The translations under genes and the position numbers were made by a program. A stretch of 64,000 nt of DNA. Source: Nemertoderma westbladi. Taxonomy: Eukaryota; Animalia; Xenacoelomorpha. Positions 6,943-64,000 of this stretch are shown one piece after another. The stretch is from NCBI GenBank assembly GCA_032718475.1, contig JAUCBJ010007231.1:36742-100741 (forward strand), in the 5' to 3' direction. Within the stretch, counting starts at the first letter, position 1, and every line of letters begins with the position of its first letter. The notes below the pieces were generated by a model that saw only the letters and a program-made list of their open reading frames with translations, did not search any database and was not told the DNA's origin.

Positions 6943-9219
6943 ATTCATATTCAAACTGCATTGTGTAATCATTATCAATAATTGCACAAAAACAGGCAGT
7001 TACACAAGGTAACTGGTAATAATGAATATACGTCAGACTGGCCCGCCCAGACATTTAATGTTGGGTTCTACAGTATGTATATAAACTTACTCTAATCCCT
7101 AATGAATTACTACACCCCTAGCTAGATATTGCACAAATTATATTATAATATATGAATCACTGAGTGTACACAATTTACGAGATGCTATGAAAAAAAGGTA
7201 ATTGTTTTTTGCGTTATGTTGTATCATCCCGGTGGTACTGAGTTAGGTAATGTTTTTTTAGGGTTGCATTAAATTCTTTCAAGTGTTGGTATTGGGAAGT
7301 TACTGCCTGTGGTAGTTCATTCCACATTTGTATTAATTTATATGTTAATGATGTATGACCGTAATAATTTTTAGTTTTTGGCATTTTGATTTTAAATGTT
7401 CGTGGGTTTATTTGTTTGTTTTCATTTTTTAAGAATGGTAGGTCGAGATGTTTGAATGGTTCTGCTATTCCTAGTAAATATTTGTGTAAAAAGGTGATGC
7501 CGTAGTATTCGCGAGATGCATAAAGAGTTGGAATTTTAGCTTTTGTGCGAAGTTCGGTAGCAGAACAATCTTTTGGTTTTTTGCTAAATATGCAACGTAG
7601 TGCTAAGTTCTGCATTTTTTCCAAACGGTACAGTATTTTTTTGTGTCCATATTCGTTGTGTAAAGATAACAGCAGCTGGCAACAATAATTATGGTATGGT
7701 AAAACCAATGCTTTATATAAAGTAATTTTCGTTTTTAGTGGTAATTGCCCTTTAATTTTTCTTAGACCCGAAATTGCCATACCCATTTTACTAATAACTG
7801 AATCAATCTGCTCTTTCCATTCTAGTTTATTGTCTATTTTTATACCTAAATATCGTACGCTAGTCGATTGTTCTATTATACATTCTTCGTTTAATTTAAT
7901 TTTTATTTGTGGAATATTATTGTCTATATTTTTATGTGGATGTAGAAGTAAAAGTTCTGTTTTATCTGGATTAACTTGAAGACTGTATGCCTGGAAAATG
8001 TTTGAAATATTATGTATGATGTTTTTTAATTCGCTTGCTAAGTAGACCGGATCTTTTCCTGATATATATATGGCTGTGTCGTCAGCGTATTGTACCATGG
8101 ACGTATTTTTAGTTACTAGAGATGGCATAGTGTTAGTATAGAGTGTGTACATTAAAGGCCCCATTAGGGTACCTTGAGGGACACCCCTTTTTTCGGTCAA
8201 ATATGTCGAAGAAATGTTTCCGATTTTAACTTTCTGTTTGCGGTCTGAGAGGTAATTTTTAATTAATTTTAAAGCCGTTGAATTAAATCCTAATGAATCG
8301 AGCTCTTTTAGTAAAGTATCGTGTCTGAGAGAGTTAAAGGCCTTGCTGAGGTCGAGGAACGCCACGGCAACATACTTACCTTGGTTGAGTTCAGCTCTCC
8401 ACTGCTCCGTAGCGTACGTAATGGCGTCTAATGTAGAATATTTCTTTCGAAAGCCGAACTGGTATGGATTTAGTAGGTTATTTTGATACAAATATGTATT
8501 AATTTGATTAACTAAATGACGTTCGAATATTTTTGCTATTGGTTGAGTAACTGCTATAGGTCTGTAGTTAGCTGGATCTAGATGGTTCTCCTTTTTATAT
8601 ATTGGTGTTATTTGTGATATTTTTAATGAGCTGGGAAATTTTGATTGTGTTATACAATTATTAAAGATAGCTGTGAGGGGTTCACATATGTGTGGTGACA
8701 TTAATTTGAATATTTTAATTGGAATATCAGAAGGTCCAGATGACTTTGAGACATTTAGCTTATTAATTATTTCATACATTTGTAGTGATGTAACAGTATT
8801 GAAACTAAAGGAGGGCCCATTGTTTGGCGATGATTGCATTGGTTTTTGATGGTTTTGGATTTCACTAAATATGTTGTTTACCTTTGTAAAATCCCCTATA
8901 TCTATGTAGACTTCATTAAATACCCGCGCAATTTCTGTTGGATCTGTATAAAATATTCCCTTGTATTTGATTTCTGATATATTATTTCTTTCAGTTGATT
9001 TATTTAGTATTTGATTTATTACTTTCCACCGCCCCTTACTTGTAGTGCATGTTGCATATGTGTTATTGACATATTGGTTTTTTAATTTTTTATTTAGATT
9101 GTTAAACTTGTTTCTGGCTTTTTTAAATAACTTGAAATCGTTTTCGAAGTTAGTTTCCCGCCATTTAGCAAATAAGATATATTTTTCTTTACGAAGAACT
9201 TCTAACAACTCGTTTGACC
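6909..9219 (-). mobile_element. Young 5'-truncated CR1/L2-group (Crack/Daphne-like) LINE with poly(A) tail
   Basis: 30-nt poly(T) at 6909-6938, ~275-bp 3' UTR, uninterrupted RT ORF 7214-9208. Confidence 0.9.
7214..9208 (-). CDS. Non-LTR reverse transcriptase (N-truncated ORF2, 664 aa, no stops)
   Basis: NYRPIAV, QFGFR, FLDLSKAF, GVPQGTLMGP, YADD, VRYLGI motifs. Confidence 0.9.
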   Translation of the reverse strand: MLEVLRKEKYILFAKWRETNFENDFKLFKKARNKFNNLNKKLKNQYVNNTYATCTTSKGRWKVINQILNKSTERNNISEIKYKGIFYTDPTEIARVFNEVYIDIGDFTKVNNIFSEIQNHQKPMQSSPNNGPSFSFNTVTSLQMYEIINKLNVSKSSGPSDIPIKIFKLMSPHICEPLTAIFNNCITQSKFPSSLKISQITPIYKKENHLDPANYRPIAVTQPIAKIFERHLVNQINTYLYQNNLLNPYQFGFRKKYSTLDAITYATEQWRAELNQGKYVAVAFLDLSKAFNSLRHDTLLKELDSLGFNSTALKLIKNYLSDRKQKVKIGNISSTYLTEKRGVPQGTLMGPLMYTLYTNTMPSLVTKNTSMVQYADDTAIYISGKDPVYLASELKNIIHNISNIFQAYSLQVNPDKTELLLLHPHKNIDNNIPQIKIKLNEECIIEQSTSVRYLGIKIDNKLEWKEQIDSVISKMGMAISGLRKIKGQLPLKTKITLYKALVLPYHNYCCQLLLSLHNEYGHKKILYRLEKMQNLALRCIFSKKPKDCSATELRTKAKIPTLYASREYYGITFLHKYLLGIAEPFKHLDLPFLKNENKQINPRTFKIKMPKTKNYYGHTSLTYKLIQMWNELPQAVTSQYQHLKEFNATLKKHYLTQYHRDDTT

Positions 9220-10717
9220 ATTCGTTTTAAAGATATATTTCTAAAGGCACTTAATACTGTAGCACCAATTATTAAAGAAATTAGTCTTAAACAACGCACT
9301 GAGCCCTGCATGTCCTCGGGTATTCTTAGTAATATCAGAGAAAGATATAACTATTTGTATAAATTTAGGAAATACCGTGTTTTAGCTGATTATAATAATT
9401 ACTGCAAATATAGAAACCTTGTCCAACGGGAAGTAAAAAAAGCGAAATCTGAATATTTGTACAACAAAATAAGTGAGAATAAAGATAATCCTAAAAGTCT
9501 ATGGTCTACCCTAAAATCTTTAGGTTATAAAAACCTTAAATCTTTATCGAATATTGTTCTGCAAGATAACGGTGAGCTGATTCATGATCATACTCTAGTT
9601 AATAATTTATTTCATAATTATTTTACTAATGTTGCCTCTAATTTAGTTAAGAAGTTACCGTTATCAAGTAATAAATATAGTATAGGGTCCGAAACTCTAA
9701 ATAATTTTTATTTAGAAAAGTTACAAAATTCAGAAAAGTTATTTTTAAAACCCGTTTCTGAGGATTTCGTTTTTCAAAATCTACTTAGCCTATCAGCCTC
9801 AAAAAGTACCGGTCTCGACCTAATACCTGCCCGTTTTCTTAAGGATGGTGCTGAAGTACTTAAAGTGCCTATTACTTTTATTATTAATTACTCTATCGTA
9901 GATATTGTAGTACCAGACGAACTGAAATTAGCTAAGGTTGTTCCTCTGTATAAAAAGAATAGTTAAGTATTGTTATCGTAGATAATGTAGTACCAGACGA
10001 ACTGAAATTAGCTAAGGTTGTTCCTCTGTATAAAAAGAATAGCCTTGATCTAACAGGTAGGACTTGAACCAGTCTATAGAACCTACGCTCATCAGGCCTA
10101 ACTTAAAATTACTAAAGTTACTAAAGTTAAAGTTACTAAAATTCTACAACGTTCTGTTTTTCTACAGCTGGAAGCACATCTTAGTAGGCTAAATCTGATC
10201 TATAAACTTCAGTCCGGTTTTCGTAAATCATATTCTACAGACACCTGCCTTATTAACTTAACTGATACAATTAGATGTAATAACGCAAAGGGTTTATATA
10301 CTGGTATGGTAATGTTGGACCTACAAAAGGCTTTCGATACTGTAGATCACGAAATTCTGCTTGGTAAGTTAGGCCTGATGGGTGTAGGTTCTATAGACTG
10401 GTTCAAGTCCTACCTGTCAGACAGAGGTCAAACTGTAGTCATTAGCAAATCGCAGTCTACTGTACAAGAGATTACCTGTGGTGTACCGCAAGGTAGTATA
10501 TTAGGTCCTCTGCTTTTTGTCTGCTATGTAAATGATACGATAAGTAGTATAGATCCCGATTTAAAACTCATTTTATATGCCGACGACAGTGCTCTTATTT
10601 TCTCTCATAAAGATCCTATCCATATTTCCCAAAAGTTAAGTGCAGTTCTAGAATCCTGTAATGAGTGGTTGGTTGATAATAAGCTATCCATTCACTACGG
10701 TAAGACTGAAAGTATTT

Positions 10718-19935: not shown

Positions 19936-21954
19936 TTAGTGTCTTTGCAGTTCTTTGAAAATTTCAGAAATTATTTTGACGATTCTTTCCCCGTTGTTTA
20001 TTAACATAAATTCTGCTACCGTGGAGTAGGATTTTCCCCCCAATATATCTTTCGTCAGTGAACAACCCGATAACACGTGTAATTCGTTCTGTACCGACGA
20101 TCCATCACATTTGCAGACTCGTTCTTCTCTAGGTACACGTGTCCACCTTCCTGTCTCTACCCTTAAGCGATGCGCGCTTAAACGAAATCTTGTAAAATCG
20201 ATCCTGTTCTGCTCGTGTATGTACGGTTTCTGCTGATTATATACCTTGTGGATAGTTAGATTAGGGTTTATTTCCAGGTAAGTTGCCAATTTAGTGTGGA
20301 TATGTGCAGTATCTTTAATTCTACTCTTCAAACCATTAATATTTCTAGCTATTATATTACCTTCCGTCAGTTCTAACTTATTTAGATATTTAAAAGCGCG
20401 GGTGTTCCCTGTTTTTGCCAGATGATACGCGATGTGTGCAGGATCTTCTCGGTGCCACGATTTCTTGAGTCTTCGGATAGAGTTTCTAATATTATTGTCG
20501 ATAACGGATCCTACCTCGGCCATACCAATCTCTGTATAGCACAGCACATTTGGTGTTGTTGTTTTAACGCCTAAAAGTATTTTTATCAGTTTACTATATA
20601 TCTTTTCAATTTCCTTTCTCCCCCGTATTGCTAACCAGGTATCGCTGGAATACAGTATCGCTGCCGTTACAGCACAGTCAAGCACCTTTTTCTTTAGACA
20701 GAAAGGCATATTTGGATTGCTGGCACAAAATGCTGCAAACTTGGCTACCTGTTTTTTACTTTCACCTGCGTGTAAATTTATCACTGATTCTATTCTACCA
20801 TCCTGTGTGAAGAAACCACCCAGGTAAACATATTTATCTGTATTAATTATTTGTACACTTCCGCATAACAACGGTTGTTTATCAGCTATAAATCCATTTA
20901 TGACCATGAACTTACTCTTCTTTTCATTGATTACCATATTATGTGACCTACAGAATTTATCTAAAATATTTAGCTTTTCTATACAACTCTCTCGGTTCTC
21001 AGCTAAAATAGCAGTATCGTCCATGAACAGGAGAAGATGCAAGGCTCCTAGGTATGTGTTAGTAGATGTTAGTGAATCAAACATGGCGACTAGGACATCA
21101 ATGTAAAGAGTGAATAGAAATAAACTTGATGGCGCTCCTTGACGCAAACCGCTGTCGACACGAATATCAATTGATCTAAGGTTTAAAAACGTTGTCCTAT
21201 ATATTGCTTTTATTGCGTTAATCATATTAAATCCACAACCGAGAAAAAGTAACTTGGATATAAGAGTAGACCTAGAGACTCTATCATAGGCTTTACTGAA
21301 GTCAATGAAGATGATGAATAGTTTCTTGTTCTTGGTGTAAGCATAATCGACAACCAAGCGTAGAGCAAGTATCTGTTCATAACATGATCTCCCTTTTTGA
21401 CCGCCCGCTTGAGCTCTTGACTGTTTGTACCATCTCACTAGTCTGTTCGCTAAAACGTAGTCATAAATCTTTGCTAGAGAGTCCATAATCGTGATTCCAC
21501 GGTAATTGTTACAGTTAAAACGATCACCTGTTTTATACAAAATACTTAATAAGCTATATGCCCAAACTGCCGGTAAGCATCCGAATATGAATATCGCATT
21601 CAATATAAATGTAATAAATACCACAATATTCACTGGTAGATCCTTCCAAAGAGGTGATGAAATTCCTAGCGCTGCCTTGTTCGCTTTTATTGAGTTTATC
21701 GCCTCGTCCACTTCCTGTGGTTGTATCGGGTCATCCAGGAGTGGTATAACTGGAGCCTGTGAGGTGTCAATATCGTCTACGGTATCCCCTTGATTATACA
21801 GAAGACTCTCAAAATGGTCTTTAAATTCATCGTCGGTGGGTTTGTCGATATCATCAGCTTTATCTCCAAGTTTGCCATTCCAATTTATGGCGCGCCAAAC
21901 AGATTTTGAATCCTTCGTTAGCAACAATACACCGATTACACCGAATACATCCAC
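19936..21954 (-). CDS. Non-LTR RT ORF (RTEX-like, 5'-truncated, 672 aa without stops)
   Basis: NYRGIT, FIDFSKAYD, GLRQGAPSS, FMDD, YVYLG; C-terminal RLSAHRLRVETGRW..C.C..H...C zinc knuckle. Confidence 0.88.
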   Translation of the reverse strand: MDVFGVIGVLLLTKDSKSVWRAINWNGKLGDKADDIDKPTDDEFKDHFESLLYNQGDTVDDIDTSQAPVIPLLDDPIQPQEVDEAINSIKANKAALGISSPLWKDLPVNIVVFITFILNAIFIFGCLPAVWAYSLLSILYKTGDRFNCNNYRGITIMDSLAKIYDYVLANRLVRWYKQSRAQAGGQKGRSCYEQILALRLVVDYAYTKNKKLFIIFIDFSKAYDRVSRSTLISKLLFLGCGFNMINAIKAIYRTTFLNLRSIDIRVDSGLRQGAPSSLFLFTLYIDVLVAMFDSLTSTNTYLGALHLLLFMDDTAILAENRESCIEKLNILDKFCRSHNMVINEKKSKFMVINGFIADKQPLLCGSVQIINTDKYVYLGGFFTQDGRIESVINLHAGESKKQVAKFAAFCASNPNMPFCLKKKVLDCAVTAAILYSSDTWLAIRGRKEIEKIYSKLIKILLGVKTTTPNVLCYTEIGMAEVGSVIDNNIRNSIRRLKKSWHREDPAHIAYHLAKTGNTRAFKYLNKLELTEGNIIARNINGLKSRIKDTAHIHTKLATYLEINPNLTIHKVYNQQKPYIHEQNRIDFTRFRLSAHRLRVETGRWTRVPREERVCKCDGSSVQNELHVLSGCSLTKDILGGKSYSTVAEFMLINNGERIVKIISEIFKELQRH

Positions 21955-22048
21955 CGATTCCCTTGTTCAAGTACAGTAGGTTAATAACCTCTCATACGTT
22001 TAATTAATGGTGCTAATAACTTCAAATACCAAATTAATCATCTATTAA

Positions 22049-36554: not shown

Positions 36555-39135
36555 CTGCTCCTTATACCTTTTGTTTGCGGGAGTCTGCCTTTCCCTATCA
36601 CTCTATACCCTACCTCCGCATTACCCACGATGTTCTTTCAATGTATAATTGTAGTAGTAATAACGATAGAAAAACAATACTAGATCATAGATGTGACCTG
36701 ATTCGCATACATAGCTGTATTGTATATATTTAATATTGCAGATATATATATATGTATCTAATATTGTATATAATTAGGGTCTTATATAATTCCAGTCAGG
36801 CCAGGTATTCTAGGTCATTGATCAAGAAAACTTGCCACCTCCATGGAGCATAAAGGAGGTGCCACCTGTTGCTGCATAGACACTCTTACTAGAGCAAATC
36901 TGGTCCTGTGACCCCCTTTGTTCTGGGATAAGGACGCCCTTATTCCTGGATTAAGGACCCATAGACTTGGCTGCAAGGGTATATGGCCTGGCTAGGCAGA
37001 TGGTGATCTACCAATGGCAGGTCAGGAGTGGAGAGTTCTCATGTCCACTCTGAGTGCACTTCACTGCGACCTGCACCTGGCAGCAGGAGTACAGAGAATG
37101 GCCCAGCAGATGAGCTGCACAGCCAATGGTGGGTCATGTACGTCATAGTAGGTATAGGTGATGGGCCTCATATCTGACTCCACACTTTCTGGCCCAAACC
37201 ATGGATAACCAGTGAGTCCAGATTGTGAGGGGGGGGGGGGATTCTTGAGTTGGAGGCTACTCTCATGTTCCATCCCAACCATTGGTGTATCTGAGGCAAG
37301 TCAGTAGACTAGCCTCAGTTAACACCCTAGTACTCGGGTCCCCAATGTGACAAGGTGAGCTGACTGCCTTAGCATATAAGCTTTCTCTTACCGCAGTGGG
37401 TATTCAAGAGCACCGAATGCAGACTGGACATACTGATGAGGTTCTGATTAAGGACATGGGGTGGTTGGCGACTCGCCCTTGCATCAGCAGATGATAGTGG
37501 CAATGGTGGAAATAGTCTATTGATGAATCCAAATGCACATGCAGCATTGGACAAAATAGACCAAATCTCTAACTGCATCATCCATTGCCACTTCTCATGT
37601 GCTCAATCACCTACATTGCCCTGGGTCTATATATACTGATAGTGTTAACTGAAATTTCCGTCCATCTTCAAGATTTCATCTCTGGAAATAGATTGTTTTT
37701 GGCTGGAACCCAGTTCAAGAAGCGAACTGGAAAGCTATAGACTCATAGTGGACCCAGTGGTCACAAGTCCCAGATAGACCATATTCTGTTTCGTAGGAAA
37801 TATAGGAGCTCTATCTATACAAGACTGTGTACAAGACTGCCTTTTTCTCCAGTGATCACCGCCTTATTGTGGCTAAGGTAGTCTGAATGCTAGCAGAACA
37901 ACGAAATCTGCCTTGCCGCGGCAAGACTGGTCCTCTCTGTTGCAACAGCCAAGTGTAAGAAACGGCTTCGCACTTCAGCTGAGCAACAGGTATGAGGTTC
38001 TTGCCTCTGAGGCAGCAGATCACTGCGACTTCACAGAACCAGTTAAGTTAGCAGCTGCAGAAACAGTTCCTGTATACCCTCAAAACAGGAAAAAGGCCCC
38101 CTGGTCTGACCACAAAAATCAGAAGTGCCGAAATGACCTCTATAAGGCGCAGAAAGAGTCATGACTCAAACAGACTACCTCGGCCAAGAATGCAGTTAAG
38201 GCTGCATCTAGGTCACTAAACAGGAAGTACTCTGATAATCTACAGGAGCTCATAAACCAACAGGTTGATACCATCAATGATAGATGGTGTTCCCCCTGAG
38301 ATCTTTAAAATACCCGAGTGTTTAAAGCTCATCTACCCCATCATAGTAGACATGTACGTACAGAACAACAAGAGTCCCACAAGAAATGAAAACAAATAAG
38401 TTGGTACCAGTTCCCAAGAAGGGCAACCTAACACTCTATGGTTCTTTTCAGAGAATCTCATTGATCTCAATTGCTGCAAAGCTATACAATATAAATATAT
38501 TAAATCGCATCAGGGATCCCATTGAGAGACTGCTCCGGGGAAATCAGAATGGGTTCCACATCGGTCATGGGACCATGGAGCCCATTTTGGCACTTAGAAG
38601 GATAAAAAAAGATTTAAAAAATATCAAAAAAGAAAGAAAGGCATCTGGCATTCTTCTTCAAGGCCTTTGATTCAGTTTCTTACTCACGTATGTTCAGCAT
38701 ACTTTCATTATATGGGATTCCTGAGGAAATTATTGCAGCAATCAATGCGATGGTTCGACAACATTTGTGTCTACTTTTGATGGTGACACAGAATTATTTG
38801 AAGTGTTATGGGGATTCCTCCAGGGAGACAGACACACTTGCATGATTCTTGTTCATAATTGTGGTTGACTATGTTCTACACATGTCCTTAGATCATCATA
38901 ATGATGATGGGGTGATATATAAAATCTAATTGTAAGAGCCTAGAGTCTTATACCCCCCAAACTAACAAAAAATATAGAATCAGGACATTACACCCAAAGT
39001 AGTACTCCGCCCTAAGGCCATACAACACAAAACAATACAAACAAAAATGACATAAAACAAATATATTAAAACATGCTCAACATACAGGTATGTATCACAC
39101 CTTAACCCTAACCTAACCACCATACACTAAATGAT

Positions 39136-39591
39136 CAGCTCTGCTCTCGGGGCAAATACCACACCCTGGTTTGCCATTCCACAGGGTGGGTGTCGCAATG
39201 GAGTCAGATATGAGGCCCATCACCCATATCTACTCTGGCGCACATGACCCACCATTGGCTGTTGCAGCTCATCTGCTGGGTCATGCCCTGTACCCTTGCT
39301 GCCAGGTGCAGGTCGCAGTGAAGTGCTCTCAGAGTGGACATGAGAACACTCTACTCCTGACCAGCCATTGGTAGATCACCATCTGCCTGGTCAGGCCATA
39401 TACCCCTGCAGCCAAGTATATGGGTCCTTAATCCAGGACCAATGGCGTCCTTATCCCAGAACGAAGGGGGTCCTAATTACAGGACCAGATTTGCCCTAGT
39501 AAGAGGGTCTATGCAGCTACAGGTGGCACCTCCTTTATGCTGCATGGAGGTGGCAAGTTTTCTTGATCAATGACCTAGAATACCTGACCTG
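39136..39591 (-). mobile_element. RTE family A 5'-UTR-only insertion with 10-bp TSD
   Basis: Reverse complement of 36795-37183; actaaatgat at 39126-39135 and 39592-39601; empty site seen in the other array units. Confidence 0.85.
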
Positions 39592-41775
39592 ACTAAATGA
39601 TACTAGTAGTAAACTGCACTAAATATAAGCCTATATTCTATGGAAAAATATATGACATTTTGTCGCTGTAAAGGGGTAGGACTAGGGCAAAAATAATTAA
39701 TTTTATCAAAAATATGGTTGCGTTTCGGTGTCTGAGACCCAGTATGCGGTAATCTCGACACCTATCAGCTTGACAAAGGATTACCCAAGGCCTATCTATA
39801 TTGCACCAATGACCTAAAGAAATCGCACCATGAACTCTGTTACCACCTATCCCAAACAGACATCAGACCAACAGAACATTGGAACCCTATACAGTAAATA
39901 AATCAGTGATATCATGGGAAAATACTGATAGGTTGCTGGGGCGAACAACCACAGTATAAAAAAAAATATATTAGATTTTACAATTTGCAGTGAATGTCGG
40001 ATTTCTGCTCTACATTCCATAATATGATAATCTAATTTACTGACTAATGGGGGCTTGGTATATATATAAATTCTAATTGGAAGAACCTAGAGTCTTATAC
40101 CCCCCAAACTAACAAAAAATATAGAATCAGGACATTACGCCCAAAGTAGTACTCAGCCCTAAGGCCATCAAAAATCAACACAAACCAATACAAACAAAAA
40201 TGACATAAACAAAAAACAAATATATTAAAACATGCTCAACATACAGGTATGTATTGCACCCTAACCCTAACCTAACCGCCATACACTAAATGATACCGGT
40301 AGGAAACTGCACAAAAGCTAAGCCTATATTCTATGGAAAAATATATGACATTTTGTCGCTGTAAAGGGGTAGGACTAGGGCAAAAATAATTAATTTTATC
40401 AAAAATATGGTTGCGTTTCGGTGTCTGAGACCCAGTATGCGGTAATCTCGACACCTATCAGCTTGACAAAGGATTACCCAAGGCCTATCTATATTGCACC
40501 AATGACCTAAAGAAATCGCACCATGAACTCTGTTACCACCTATCCCAAACAGACATCAGACCAACAGAACATTGGAACCCTATACAGTAAATAAATCAGT
40601 GATATCATGGGAAAATACTGGTAGGTTGCTGGGGCGAACAACCACAGTATAAAAAAAAATATATTAGATTTTACAATTTGCAGTGAATGTCGGATTTCTG
40701 CTCTACATTCCATAATATGATAATCTAATTTACTGACTAATGGGGGCTTGGTATATATATAAATTCTAATTGTAAGAACCTAGAGTCTTATACCCCCCAA
40801 ACTAACAAAAAATATAGAATCAGGACATTACGCCCAAAGTAGTACTCAGCCCTAAGGCCATCAAAAATCAACACAAATCAATACAAACAAAAATGACATA
40901 AACAAAAAACAAATATATTAAAACATGCTCAACATACAGGTATGTATTGCACCCTAACCCTAACCTAACCGCCATACACTAAATGATACCGGTAGGAAAC
41001 TGCACAAAAGCTAAGCCTATATTCTATGGAAAAATATATGACATTTTGTCGCCGTAAAGGGGTAGGACTAGGGCAAAAATAATTAATTTTATCAAAAATA
41101 TGGTTGCGTTTCGGTGTCTGAGACCCAGTATGCGGTAATCTCGACACCTATCAGCTTGACAAAGGATTACCCAAGGCCTATCTATATTGCACCAATGACC
41201 TAAAGAAATCGCACCATGAACTCTGTTACCACCTATCCCAAACAGACATCAGACCAACAGAACATTGGAACCCTATACAGTAAATGAATCAGTGATATCA
41301 TGGGAAAATACTGGTAGGTTGCTGGGGCGAACAACCACAGTATAAAAAAAATATATTAGATTTTACAATTTGCAGTGAATGTCGGATTTCTGCTCTACAT
41401 TCCATACTAATGGGGGCTTGGTATATATATAAATTCTAATTGTAAGAACCTAGAGTCTTATACCCCCCAAACTAACAAAAAATATAGAATCAGGACATTA
41501 CGCCCAAAGTAGTACTCAGCCCTAAGGCCATCAAAAATCAACACAAACCAATACAAACAAAAATGACATAAACAAAAAACAAATATATTAAAACATGCTC
41601 AACATACAGGTATGTATTGCACCCTAACCCTAACCTAACCGCCATACACTAAATGATACCGGTAGGAAACTGCACAAAAGCTAAGCCTATATTCTATGGA
41701 AAAATATATGACATTTTGTCGCCGTAAAGGGGTAGGACTAGGGCAAAAATAATTAATTTTATCAAAAATATGGTT

Positions 41776-41831
41776 GCGTTTCGGTGTCTGAGACCCAGTA
41801 CGCGGTAATCTCGACACCTCATCAGCTGGAC
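41776..41831 (-). ncRNA. Hammerhead ribozyme with substrate strand embedded in loop II (decayed copies at 39720-39774, 40413-40467, 41106-41160)
   Basis: GUCCAG-CUGAUGA-GGUGUC-GAGAUUACC-GCGU-A-CUGGGU-CUCA-GACACC-GAA-ACGC. Confidence 0.7.
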
Positions 41832-43281
41832 AAAGGATTACCCAAGGCCTATCAAATATTGCACCAATGACCTAAATAAATCGCACCATGAACTCTGTTA
41901 CCACCTATCCCAAACAGACATCAGACCAACAGAACATTAAATAAACGAACAGTAAATAAATCAGTGATACCAATGGGAAAATACTAGTAGGTTGCTGGGG
42001 CGAACAACCACAGTATAAAAATATATATACCAAGCCCCCATTAGTCAGTATGTTGGTAAATTAGATTATCATATGATGGGGTGATGGTAACTCCGCCTAC
42101 TGACTCCAGAAGTGGCGAGGAAATCCTGCCAAGTACCTAAAGGATCTAGACTTTCTGATGACTTATGAGTACTCTCAGTGATGATGATGTTATGAGTACT
42201 CTTATGGCTCCTCGGCTCATTAGAACAGGCTGCTTCTAGTGTTGGTCTTTTTATTAACTCCAAAAAGACCAAAATTTTGACAGTTAACTTTGAAAGTCCT
42301 CAGCAAGTCTCTGACCAGATGAGCCTAAGCTCAAAAGATGGTATTCTTGAGCATGTGGACGACTTCTGTTACCTGGGATCATGGATCCGGAAATCAGGTG
42401 AGGACCTTCGAATACGTAAGGGAAAGGCATGGGCAGCCTTGAATAGAAGACTAGAAACTTAAGGTCCGATTATTTAGAGCAGCAGTAGTTCCAGTACTCC
42501 TCTACGGGAGTCCATGCTGGGCTCTAACTGCTGAGGACATCAAATCTCTGGATGGCACATTCGCAAGAATGCTACGCTGGGTTAACTGTGACAAATACAA
42601 ATACAATGCACACATCCCCAACCAGACACTATATAACATTGGAGGTGTCTTCTCATTGGTTTCCCCAAGCTTGACACTAGAACAAAGCTGCCCCTGCTTT
42701 GCAGGACATTGCTTTCATCATGAGGACCAGCCAGTGCATATTCTTGTGCTTTGACAGCCTCATGGAGTGAATAAGCATGGTGGACAGCCCATAACTTTCT
42801 TGAGACGCATCTTAATTAAAGGACACAGGCCTTGAAGATGCGGATGATCTAACAAATGTCATGGGTGATAGGGAGTTGTGGTGGTGTAATTTTGTCGATA
42901 AGCCAGCACAGCATTCTTAAAAATGCAGCATGCCGATCCTAGTAGTATATAATTAGGTATATAATTCTACCTAATTAACTAAAACTGCTAATTAACTATT
43001 AAGAAATGCCAAAAAATGTAAATTGATTAATTATTGAAGTATTTAAAATACATGTATAGAAAAATATTAATGAGCACAAATTGCCACAATTCCTAATTAT
43101 TATACACTGTATAATAATTGCTTAATAATAATTTGCATAATTGACTTATAAAACGTATTAAAAATGATCGATTCATTAAATATTACTTAGGCCTATAATC
43201 ATAAATTACATAATTAACTGAAAAAACTATTATTAAAAATTGATTAATTATTGATTAATACTTAGTGCTTCGTATAAAATG

Positions 43282-48449: not shown

Positions 48450-50690
48450 TTATCTTTATTTTTCTCCTTTTGTCGTCCTCCGGAGATTCCTTTCAAATCT
48501 CTCCGCTTGTGGGCAATGTCTGCCTGAACTTCCACTATATAAGATTATTTTTGCATCTCATTTATTATTATCCGGTGGTATGACGAACCAACATTGAAGG
48601 ATAAAAAGGCACCAATAGCTGAGATATGTATTCGTTCCTCGCAAAAGAATTTGTGCTCGGGTGCCCTCAACAAAACAAGAAAATTGAGCGATTCTGATTG
48701 ATTCTGTGTAAATACAGGAAGACACAGACTATGCAGTTTTGTCGATGTGAGACGCCGATATAATGGTAAAAGATGGCCATGAAAAACGGCATCGAGAAGA
48801 TGATTTTCTCTTTTGGTATCTCACCCGAGTGTTTGAATGAACAAAACAATTGGACACCTTCAGGACAGTAAAAGTGCCGTTGCTCATTAGTTCCTGACAT
48901 CACCCCATGCCGTAATGGTGCCAAGATACTTCGTTTTAGGTCGTGTATTCGTTTGCTCTACTCTTGATCTACAGTTGAAGCAATTGATGAACGAATTGCA
49001 TATCCCATATATAGTGATAGCTTTTCAATCGCAGTCAAAGTTAACCTATGTTTTTTATTTCCTACAGGTTTTTTATCATCCAGAACAGTTCCTTTTATAG
49101 TTAGGGATTTTCTAAGATCACGGAGAGCCTTTCCAAGACGCTTCTGGTAGTGGTTAATACAGTCGATTTTATCAACACGATTACATAATGCCACGGGAGT
49201 GGGAGTTGGTGATGGAGTAGTCCCTGGAGCAGATGTTGGTGATGGAGTAGTCCCTGGAGCAGTTGTTGGCAATGGAGTAGTCCCTGCAGAAGTTGTTGGC
49301 GATAGTGTAGTCCCTTGAGCAGATGTTGGTGATGGAGTAGTCCCTGGAGCAGATGTTGGCGATGGAGTAGTCTCTGGAGCAGTTGTTGGCGTTGGAGTAG
49401 TCCCTTGAGCAGATATTGGAGATGGAGTAGTCCCTGGAGCAGATGTTGGCGATGGAGTAGTCCCTGGAGCAGTTGTTGGTGATGGATTAGTCCCTGGAGT
49501 AGTTGGCGATGGAGTAGACCCTTGAGCAGATGTTGGTGATGGAGTAGTCCCTGGAGCAGTTGTTGGCGATGGTGTAGTCTCTGGAGCAGCTGTTGGTGAT
49601 GGATTAGACCCTGGAGCAGTTGGCGATGGAGTAGACCCTTGAGCAGATGTTGTTGATGGAGTAGTCCCTGTAGCAGATGTTGGCGATGGAGTCGTCCCTG
49701 GAGTTCCTGAAGTGTGGATATCCCAATGTTTCCGGCCTATTTTGCTATTATTGAATGCCTCCTTATCTGTCCCATCCATATTATTGTATTCTCTACACAT
49801 TTCATATGTCCCAGACTGCAGAATATGCACTAGAATCTCCATCACATATGACCGAGTTGAATCTAAGGCCATGGTCAGGACTTACAGACATCTCCCTAGA
49901 CTGTTCAAATATCTCCAATGCAATATCCGTTTCCATTGCCCCACTGGATTTATTATAGGAACCTGGACATTCATCAATGTGTTTGAGCTTCCATTTGATA
50001 TATTCTTTAGATTCCTTTTTGAAAGGTGCAAACTCGCACTGTCTGCAGATCTTGGACCGCACACCATAATCTAACACCTTTCCGGTTTCCATGGATATAG
50101 CAAATCCACAACCGAAATTCGAAGTAAAGCCGCGTTTGGATTGCTTCCAACCCAAGCCCAAGCTCCATCATTGCAAAAATAACACGTGCAGTTAGGGCAG
50201 TAGAGTCCTGAGAGTAAGGACCTCTGTAGACTGCTGTTGGATCTAAACTGTTTCCAAGATATAACTCAAGAGGACACATAGAACATGTTGTTTTTATTGG
50301 AGTTTGAAGTCCTACAGTAGTATGTAGTTCATAATTCAGTTCTCCCATACATCCTCCCAATGTGTGCACTGCATGTGTATACGTTTGTAAATTACAATAA
50401 TCTAGCACCAAAAAACCAATTTCCTTTCTCACCTCAATACAACTTGAATCAGAAGGTTCGCTTACATCAGAGTCAATGTCGCTGTCTCCACTATCGGAGG
50501 AACTATCACTGAGATAATCTCCCAGTCTATGGAGGGATGAGATGATCTTTCTCTCTGCAGTGCACACAGTTGCTTTTTTCCATCCTGGACCTTTGAATTG
50601 TGAACGTCTGGGCGGATGAACAACCTTTCTCCTCTCGGTGCGTTTGATAGCAGTAGATGAAAATTTAGATTGACGTGGCATCTCAAAATC
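48450..50690 (-). pseudogene. Kolobok (Mutator-like DDE) transposase, frameshifted and internally deleted
   Basis: KRGFTSNFG, TGKVLDY.V.SK.C..C, SSGAME, ICDGDSSAY, KIDCINHYQKR, HFYCP, TQNQSESLN; the DGxW motif before KRG is deleted. Confidence 0.88.
49197..49706 (-). repeat. 30/27-bp minisatellite encoding ~17 APGTTPSPTS repeats
   Basis: Open in ORF 48958-49872, in frame with transposase sequence on both sides. Confidence 0.92.
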
Positions 50691-51664
50691 AAATGAATTA
50701 TTTATTGTACAGACCGTCACAACAGTACTGCCTAGTAATACTGAAATAATATAGCAGAATACTGAAATAATGAAGACCTAGGCCTAAAACCTGCAGTGTA
50801 AAAATAGCAGAATACAGGTACTGGAATAATGAAGACATATAAATTAGTTAATTAAGTTTAAATTTCCCGCTTCCTTTTTATCTGCAGATATACTTCTCAA
50901 ATACCAAATTACATATGGCCTACTTCTTACATAGTAGACGGACATGTTGATAGATTAGATTCTAGCAAACATGACTTCGGAAATAAATTCAGCGAAAATT
51001 ATTAGCCAATAACAAAAATTAAAGAATCTTTCATTCAATATAATAAAGGACAGACAGCAGACATACAGACAGACAGACAGATAGATAGATAGACACACAG
51101 AAAGACAGACAGACCGAAATGCAGGCAGGCAGACATAACTCGAAAAGTAAGGGAGATCTCGCTAAAAGGTTTCACCCCCCCCCCCCCCCCCCCCCCCAGG
51201 TACTATGACCAGATGGTGAAACTTGTAAGCGGATTCAATTCCGATGCACTATCCACCCGAGAATGGGACCAGTGGCACTTTATCAATATAGTTGAGGATA
51301 CGAGATTACCAATAATAATCTCGCCTCATAACCAACTTTGGGGGGGCGACACAAGCCCTAAAGCCATAGAGAGAGGTGGGAGGTCAAACCACCTCGGAGG
51401 AAGAAACAAGCTAGTGAGGCTAGCGGCGGGGGGGGGGGGGGGAACACTCACAGGGAGTGCCAAAGTGACAATTAGTATATTAGCCAATAGCAGGGAGGGA
51501 AGCACGTAAACAGAGATAGGAAAGCATCCACTGGGTACAGAAGGCCAAGTAGAGTAAGAGGTGAAACCAATATCTGTGTGTATAAATCATATATTATTCT
51601 GTATTACTGATTTACCGGTCAGTTCATTAATCACAGAGTTGCAGACCGGTCATAGTTTATGACT

Positions 51665-62587: not shown

Positions 62588-63482
62588 GATTTGGCTGAGT
62601 TATTAATGATTAAAATTGAACACAACAGAACGACCGGCACCCTGATTGAGTTAGTGGGACCTGTATGCTAAGCAAGCTTACTTTCGTGGCTCGCCTACAA
62701 AAATGATTTAACCAAAGCCCTAAATGTTGTGCAAAGTCTCATTTTGGTAGTATACGGTATATTTAGATGCTACAGTAACGTGTAGATAAAGTTATATATT
62801 TAGGCCACGAGATACATTCTTCCACAGATGATGACTACGATATAAATCGGCAATCTTGTAGTCTTTATGCTAATTTACTTATTAGTAAATTCCATTCTTG
62901 TAATAATTTTGTTTAGGCACGTCTGTTCCGTGCATATTGTACAAATATATATGGCAACGCACTATGACCAAGGACCAATTACTCTGGCAATGCCCATGCC
63001 AAATTACATCCATATGTTTAATGTTGCGGATTGGTGTTGAGCATGGCATAAGCATATTACTACTATTGCCACTATTGTTTGTTAAACAGATATAGCTATT
63101 CTGTTTGCTACAGCCGTCAAACTTTGCCATCGTTTTATTTCTAAATTTACTTTGAATTTTATTTAATTTGTCTATTTTAATGTTTAATACAATCCACTGA
63201 AAACACTCGAAACGGGCGAAATGCGCATACAGGGTGTAGGGACATAAACTCTTTTTAATATACGTCGCAAGACCCTCATCTCAGTTCGACCTTCCCTCCA
63301 GCAGCCCCCTGGAGCGCTGGAGGCTCATCATATAATGTGCCAAATTACTTACAGCTTATAATACAGCTAATCGACTGTTTTTCACCATCCCTAGGATAGG
63401 ATGGTTGATAAGGATACTCTCCCCTCCCACGAGTATGTCACTAACTTGTAACCAACTTAGCTTACCAACGTTTGTGCATGCC

Positions 63483-64000
63483 AGAGTCAGGGCGATTGAA
63501 AGCCTTGCTAAGCGCATAGACCTGTCAGAGCCAGGGCAATTTAAAGCCTTGCTAAGCGTGTAGACCTGTCAGAGACGGGAGATTGAAAGCCTTGCTAAGC
63601 GCGTAGACCTGTCAGAGCCGTGCGATTGAGAGCCTTGCTAAGCGCATAGACCTGTCAGAGCCAGGGTGATTGAAAGCCTTGCTAAGCGTGTAGACCTGTC
63701 AGAGCCGGGCGATTGAGAGCCTTGCTAAGCGCGTAGACCTGTCAGAGCTGGGCGATTGAAAGCCTTGCTAAGCGTGTAGACCTGTCAGAGACGGGAGATT
63801 GAAAGCCTTGCTAAGCGCGTAGACCTGTCAGAGCCGTGCGATTGAGAGCCTTGCTAAGCGCATAGACCTGTCAGAGCCAGGGTGATTGAAAGCCTTGCTA
63901 AGCGTGTAGACCTGTCAGAGCCGGGCGATTGAGAGCCTTGCTAAGCGCGTAGACCTGTCAGAGCTGGGCGATTGAAAGCCTTGCTAAGCGTGTAGACCTC
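63483..64000. repeat. 43/44-bp minisatellite with a 216-bp higher-order unit
   Basis: Unit gattgaaagccttgctaagcgcgtagacctgtcagagccgggc; runs off the window end. Confidence 0.95.

Follow-up and report, generated by a model that had tools for sequence, protein, structure and literature searches.

The minus strand of the window (the whole 64,000-nt stretch of DNA analyzed) carries an intact hammerhead motif of type CSG, which probably folds in cis into a four-helix double pseudoknot and is predicted to cut after the GUA triplet at 41799. The same overall reading, which we consider likely, places the motif in a non-coding, multi-copy repeat that would have been moved by a Penelope-like retrotransposon (PLE), possibly of the Naiad clade. 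The topology is already published, and the ribozyme, judged by its sequence, is a further member of a rare known class. The host context, likely an animal, and the mobile-element home of CSG are new. Equally new, as far as can be read from the DNA, is an ORF-less PLE-type or retrozyme-like repeat with CSG, where animal retrozymes have been described with type I hammerheads.

Architecture of the hammerhead motif

Eckert et al. (2023; PMC10085705) define three hammerhead blocks, C, S, and G, and give a name to each of the six orders in which these can occur. The motif contains the blocks in the order C, S, G with crossing stems I–III (Table 1), and combines the CUGANGA and GAAA core elements with the NUH triplet GUA, predicting a cut between 41799 and 41798. 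Stem I (GUCCAG/CUGGGU) has 6 bp, consisting of four Watson–Crick and two GU pairs; stem II (GGUGUC/GACACC) has 6 bp, and stem III (GCGU/ACGC) has 4 bp. Types I, II, and III keep the substrate strand outside the closed stem II, an arrangement that this motif does not have. A preliminary description of the window had given the letters of the minus strand from 41831 to 41776, the core, the three stems, and the GUA site, and all are present as it stated, the cut being a prediction; the observation itself is confirmed. It had also presented the arrangement as unrecognized, which does not hold, the C-S-G order being the type CSG of Eckert et al. The fourth helix, as well as the loss of G8 and the stem I and III mismatches in three other tandem copies, had escaped it, and its interpretation is partly supported.

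A loose CSG descriptor applied to both strands of the 64-kb window matches this site alone, and none of 300 dinucleotide shuffles gave any match. The earlier claim that no substrate strand lies nearby is borne out: no other full one is present in 38900–42100, where four further loose GUH-YURG words have no stem III match. Rfam searches gave no hit at the gathering threshold, and a hammerhead was not found at E ≤ 5 either; two weak SNORD21 matches, scoring 24 and 21.6 bits where 63 are required, were dismissed as chance hits. The shortness of stem III (4 bp only), the four Watson–Crick pairs of stem I, and the ordinary fold z-scores of the motif (−0.33 and −0.83) weigh against our reading. An exact 22-mer scan of metagenomes gave no matches. 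Degenerate CSG-spacing scans, each giving at least 120 loci, covered 38 of 64 parts of a metagenome collection, 10 of 64 of a viral one, and 52 of 64 of a prokaryote one; none of the 360 listed loci passed a CSG helix filter that recovers the window motif. With the spacing used, forms with long linkers, such as those from nematodes described below, would escape detection.

Table 1. Features of the ribozyme motif and of the insertion that carries it, in window coordinates
Feature	Position	Strand	Basis or remark
Intact type CSG hammerhead, four helices, 67 nt	41776–41842	−	Sequence, descriptor, and layout compared with Eckert Suppl. Fig. 10
Joining helix (stem I–II), 5′ strand GGUAAUC	41836–41842	−	7 Watson–Crick bp with 41810–41804; GCUAAUU in relatives
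Block C: stem I 5′ strand	41826–41831	−	Sequence and helix check
Block C: core CUGAUGA	41819–41825	−	Sequence
Block C: stem II 5′ strand	41813–41818	−	Sequence and helix check
Joining helix, 3′ strand GAUUACC	41804–41810	−	Overlaps competing GAGAU extension (41812–41808)
Block S: 5′ strand of stem III, GUA triplet (predicted cut follows 41799), 3′ strand of stem I	41793–41803	−	
Block G: stem II 3′ strand, GAAA, stem III 3′ strand	41776–41788	−	Sequence and helix check
Whole insertion, four units of 670–693 nt	38917–42072	−	No ORF >79 codons
Unit 2, decayed copy	41106–41171	−	G8 lost; stem I and III mismatches
Unit 3, decayed copy	40413–40478	−	G8 lost; stem I and III mismatches
Unit 4, decayed copy	39720–39785	−	Probable source of unit 2 and 3 lesions
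5′ target-site duplication, 13 bp	42073–42085	−	
3′ target-site duplication, 13 bp	38904–38916	−	
Inverted copy: TA run and 36-nt tail	42021–42072	+	8-nt insertion; 5′ end of insertion
36-nt tail after internal unit end	40717–40752	−	
36-nt tail, further copies	40024–40059; shortened at 41406–41422		
Unrelated 456-bp repeat	39136–39591	.	Later insertion into unit 4
10-bp duplication of 456-bp repeat	39592–39601 and 39126–39135		

A fourth helix and a competing hairpin

The strand GGUAAUC (41842–41836) pairs with GAUUACC (41810–41804) through seven Watson–Crick base pairs, and the motif therefore starts at 41842. This helix agrees with the published structure line of type CSG. Of the two linkers that the preliminary description had placed in loop II, the 4-nt one stands; the 9-nt one is mostly a strand of the fourth helix. 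At least seven Watson–Crick pairs with the linker were obtained in 50 of 20,000 random 18-mers of the window, and in 628 of 20,000 when GU pairs were allowed. An extension of stem II by GAGAU/GUCUC, also part of the earlier account, is real and dominates nested folding predictions: pseudoknot-free folding assigns 0.57–0.90 to the hairpin of stem II with this extension and 0.01–0.37 to the fourth helix, which counts against the cis fold, although nested folding and cofolding are methods unable to represent a pseudoknot. The energies of the two nested folds are near-equal (−22.0 and −22.2). Helix stacking summed without loop terms amounts to −38.1 kcal/mol for the cis fold and −35.0 kcal/mol per monomer for a fold acting in trans, and this estimate would slightly favor the former. 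Given the dominance of the extension in nested folding, the motif may fold slowly, be held in an OFF state, or cleave as a dimer.

Part of the unit is present in five sequencing runs of one organism. Four of these, representing at most three samples and at most three studies and including one that is possibly the source of the window, were mapped onto the unit. The contigs lying on it number 350, 588, 391, and 39 in the four runs, a depth that is not a copy number; most are <99% alike, indicating a diverged multi-copy family. Variants were read from separate, unphased consensus strings, the rows listed being 40 of the 83 with variants and 24 of the 395 at loose ends. Among the matches listed, the 9-mer GCGUACUGG of block S, whose conservation the preliminary description had set as a check on its reading, is unchanged in all seven loose-end rows crossing it, and the flanks vary. 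Both rows showing a variant of the upstream strand, among the matches listed, carry GCUAAUU(C), and four of the seven loose-end rows carry GAUUAGC or GAUUAGU, corresponding to a swap from G-C to C-G at 41841/41805; the change at 41841 occurs in three of the four runs. The 3′ strand of the joining helix is replaced by a different sequence in the other three of the seven rows. In the dominant X5 contig, 41806 is changed and no partner change is listed at 41840, an observation that argues against the cis fold. For the fourth helix, the family thus provides one compensatory pair, read unphased, and one change that seems to be uncompensated. The helix and its unphased compensatory change in relatives favor folding in cis, despite the competing hairpin. 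Inspection by eye indicates that the relatives can also form a stem II extension, as GGAU/GUCC or AGGAU/GUCCU.

In run X2, a loose end behind 41789 marks relatives in which the sequence upstream of block S is replaced. The replacement could pair back with CUGGU, enclosing the predicted cut site in a small hairpin, and may derive from a truncated copy that ends in a fold-back.

The repeat unit and its insertion

The insertion bears the PLE signature of a partial tandem, an inverted 5′ copy, and a tail within 30–40 bp, observed here in one insertion. Its 13-bp duplication occurs at just the two flanking sites in the window, and a common 13-mer appeared in one of 5,000 random draws. The 36-nt tail is missing from the 3′ terminus of the insertion. 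Units 2 and 3 follow unit 4 to alignment column ~305–383 and unit 1 from column 425, and are thus chimeras with 5′ parts from unit 4 and 3′ parts from unit 1. The insertion therefore likely had two units originally, and the three dead ribozymes, which have lost G8 (in hammerhead position numbering), amount to one decayed copy; they were rejected as independent evidence on this ground. An insertion of two units would have been expanded by unequal exchange, and unit 1 is the only one here that might have kept the ability to cut.

Neither the unit nor the 10 window ORFs scanned yielded a PLE protein. The features that define the Naiad clade (N-terminal GIY-YIG, CxC, and RT) are missing from the unit, which has no ORF >79 codons; it could at most be a non-autonomous Naiad passenger, linked to these elements by the common ribozyme type. 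Four short unit motifs compared with the Naiads retrieved no related Naiad stretch, and as this comparison gave no sequence similarity linking the unit to a Naiad, we only infer its Naiad parentage.

The end of the 5′ duplication (42073–42080) resembles the reverse complement of the bases following the tail (40709–40716) at six of eight positions, a possible microhomology setting the inversion junction. Each unit contains a telomere-like GGTTAG/GGGTTAG run (41616–41637). The inverted repeat at 36794–37182 and 39199–39594 was considered as a pair of transposon ends and rejected, as it consists of two copies of a dispersed repeat. This non-coding repeat of ~400–450 bp has opposite copies at 39136–39591 and 36794–37182 (91%), one nested in unit 4. 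Elsewhere in the window, a 43-nt tandem repeat of 12 copies with higher-order periods of 130 and 216 nt runs to the window end (63482–63999), and a Mutator-like transposase fragment (PF20700) lies beside a frame in which a 30-nt repeat encodes Thr/Pro/Ser-rich units (48958–50777 for the two together). Two long open non-LTR RT frames of ~670 aa matching RVT_1 (7214–9226 and 19936–21966) are possibly recent insertions. It is this transposon content, with its many non-LTR RTs and the Mutator-like fragment, that makes an animal host likely.

Proposed mechanism and alternatives

In the proposed mechanism, the minus strand would be transcribed and the 5′ strand of the fourth helix would capture GAUUACC, holding stems I and II together. 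This helix would replace the loop I–loop II contact of ordinary hammerheads and leave block S free to pair with blocks C and G, so that the RNA would be cut after A41799. Hammerhead cleavage leaves a 2′,3′-cyclic phosphate and a 5′-OH. From an intact tandem, ~690-nt monomers would be released, possibly as circles, and a Penelope-type RT-endonuclease acting in trans could copy this RNA into new sites. Two internal start points would give rise to the 36-nt tail; in PLEs, the tail is attributed to RT starting at either of two internal sites. What benefit cutting would bring to the element is uncertain. In an Anolis PLE, hammerhead cleavage is described as protein-assisted and as dispensable for insertion in vitro.

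The extended hairpin can be accommodated in two other ways. The preliminary description had proposed, besides the cis fold, that stem II extends via GAGAU/GUCUC and shows block S in the loop to the core of another unit. The dominance of the extended hairpin in nested folding, the similar extension that relatives can form as judged by eye, and the tandem arrangement of the units fit such cleavage in trans or in dimers, and small PLE hammerheads are known to cleave as dimers. This model, however, offers no explanation for the fourth helix of 7 bp or for the compensatory change in it, and forming 8–10 bp across a 13-nt loop would probably be sterically hard. By eye, no equivalent of the extension is visible in the nematode CSG examples, and the published CSG ribozymes cut in single-motif constructs (PMC10085705). 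Thus, the extension is real, but its display to a neighbor is less likely, the neighboring cores at this locus being dead; we regard cleavage in trans as quite unlikely. The hairpin might instead be a selected OFF state that protects the full-length RNA, with the CSG fold adopted only when the retrotransposon protein is present or later in the process. The near-equal nested folds, the persistence of the hairpin in relatives, and the protein-assisted Anolis hammerhead agree with such a switch; the missing extension in nematode CSG and the frequency of chance helices of 4–5 bp do not, and the idea is unlikely. It is compatible with the cis fold, to which it adds regulation only. The cis double pseudoknot, the other model of the preliminary description, matches a published and experimentally cleaving class.

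A separate question is which element moved the repeat. A genuine CSG motif could reside in a satellite or in a repeat mobilized by an RTE, L2, or CR1 LINE or by a rolling-circle DNA element. LINEs also generate 13-bp duplications and 5′ inversions, and GGTTAG-type runs such as that of the unit are found in some DNA-element repeats. Fragments of non-LTR RTs are abundant in the window, where 4 of the 10 ORFs scanned match RVT_1. Against this origin, an extension like the 36-nt one, occurring at internal junctions and in the inverted copy and missing from the 3′ terminus, has been described as a peculiarity of PLEs, and hammerheads, CSG in particular, are found in PLE 3′ ends. Mobilization by something other than a PLE is accordingly very unlikely.

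Type CSG and its permutation in Naiad elements

Craig et al. (2021; PMC8557442) describe Naiads as lacking a canonical hammerhead and attach to some of them the flags 'HHR_core' and 'HHR_half_core', with a second half 35–50 nt away. For 47 of the 54 consensi in File S5 of that paper, the terminal ~300 nt were parsed by eye for Naiad folds. A complete CSG with the fourth helix was recognized by eye in six of the eight nematode records (Naiad-1, -2, -3_Nbra, Hcon, Hpol, and Asuum), and none was seen in the 3′ stretch viewed of the two Pristionchus records. The fourth helix of these six folds spans 9–16 bp, stem I 5–6, stem II 4–5, and stem III 6–11, and the stem sequences differ among them. The triplet is GUC in five and GUU in one, Asuum has an extra U after the core, and stem III of Hcon and Hpol, like that of the window motif, is preceded by a zero-nt linker. 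The paper flags three of the six as core or half-core and does not recognize CSG in them.

A core-split order was identified by eye in the Bfor, Amil, Aacu, Anas, Plae, EuTe, Obim, and Ovul Naiads. Its four helices are those of CSG, and the opening of the chain falls between CUGAUGA and stem II, which makes it a circular permutation of CSG. Neither order was seen in the stretch viewed of the other 33 consensi. The Acropora records contain an extra 8-bp helix and a hairpin that close the core-split opening.

Non-circularly permuted hammerheads may be the ribozyme native to Naiad-type Penelope elements and to the non-coding passengers of such elements, a proposal to which we give slightly less than an even chance. 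On this view, a single fold with four helices would occur in two circular permutations, CSG in the window family and in six nematode Naiads, and the core-split order in Naiads from ctenophore, coral, acanthocephalan, clam-shrimp, and octopus. The unit would be a Naiad-mobilized retrozyme releasing ~690-nt monomers, and the soil CSG pair may derive from elements of soil animals. If this is true, CSG is a common animal ribozyme missed by type I–III descriptors.

The multi-copy family and the six divergent nematode examples point to a likely host class for CSG and show that its stems vary extensively. They bear on why Naiads seem to be without the hammerhead of other Penelope-like elements, a matter that can be tested with RNAs of 70–90 nt. 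Genome surveys of retrozymes based on type I descriptors would miss the whole class. For structural work on the double pseudoknot, the examples form a natural series with stem III of 4–11 bp, a fourth helix of 7–16 bp, and linkers of 0–16 nt.

Comparison with known systems

In the openly accessible literature searched, CSG was found only in PMC10085705, which a 2026 paper cites in passing. There it comprises two similar soil-metagenome DNA sequences, designated CSG-1 and CSG-2, which cut at the predicted site during transcription at 0.004 and 0.026 per min in single-motif constructs. In the alignment of that study, a fourth helix is made up of two strands, one upstream of stem I and the other following stem II. 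The authors graded the evidence that CSG is biologically relevant as weaker because of the two similar sequences with no known host. The window motif shares with them the C-S-G order, the intact core, the joining helix, the G10.1–C11.1 and G16.2–C15.2 pairs, and near-identical spacing: the distance from CUGAUGAG to CGAAAC is 34 nt here and 35 nt there, and the stem I-to-II linker is 4 nt compared with 4–5 nt. In contrast, the stem sequences are unrelated, the triplet is GUA rather than GUC, and the window motif has a zero-nt linker before stem III and a competing hairpin. Its 4-bp stem III also falls outside the one published descriptor seen in full, which demands 4 bp besides U-A. CSG-1 and CSG-2 are two unique soil sequences with no known host, whereas the window motif likely belongs to an animal repeat family.

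With the Naiads described in PMC8557442, where a partial tandem, an inverted 5′ copy, a 30–40-bp tail, and (TA)n ends are given as PLE/Naiad marks, the insertion has in common the first three of these, a TA-rich end, and a T-rich 3′ region. It differs in having no ORF, and those non-nematode Naiads for which a fold was recognized by eye use the core-split order rather than CSG. Animal non-LTR retrozymes (Cervera and de la Pena 2020, PMC7229834; bioRxiv 10.64898/2026.07.22.740005) are defined by type I hammerheads in tandem units, whereas the window unit has CSG, with one of four local units intact; the type I descriptors of the bioRxiv study would miss it. Both are non-coding tandem units with one hammerhead per unit, and both have a GC content <50%, duplications >4 bp, and a proposed mobilization by PLEs. 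The ~690-nt unit falls within the 51–972 bp retrozyme range of bioRxiv 10.64898/2026.07.22.740005.
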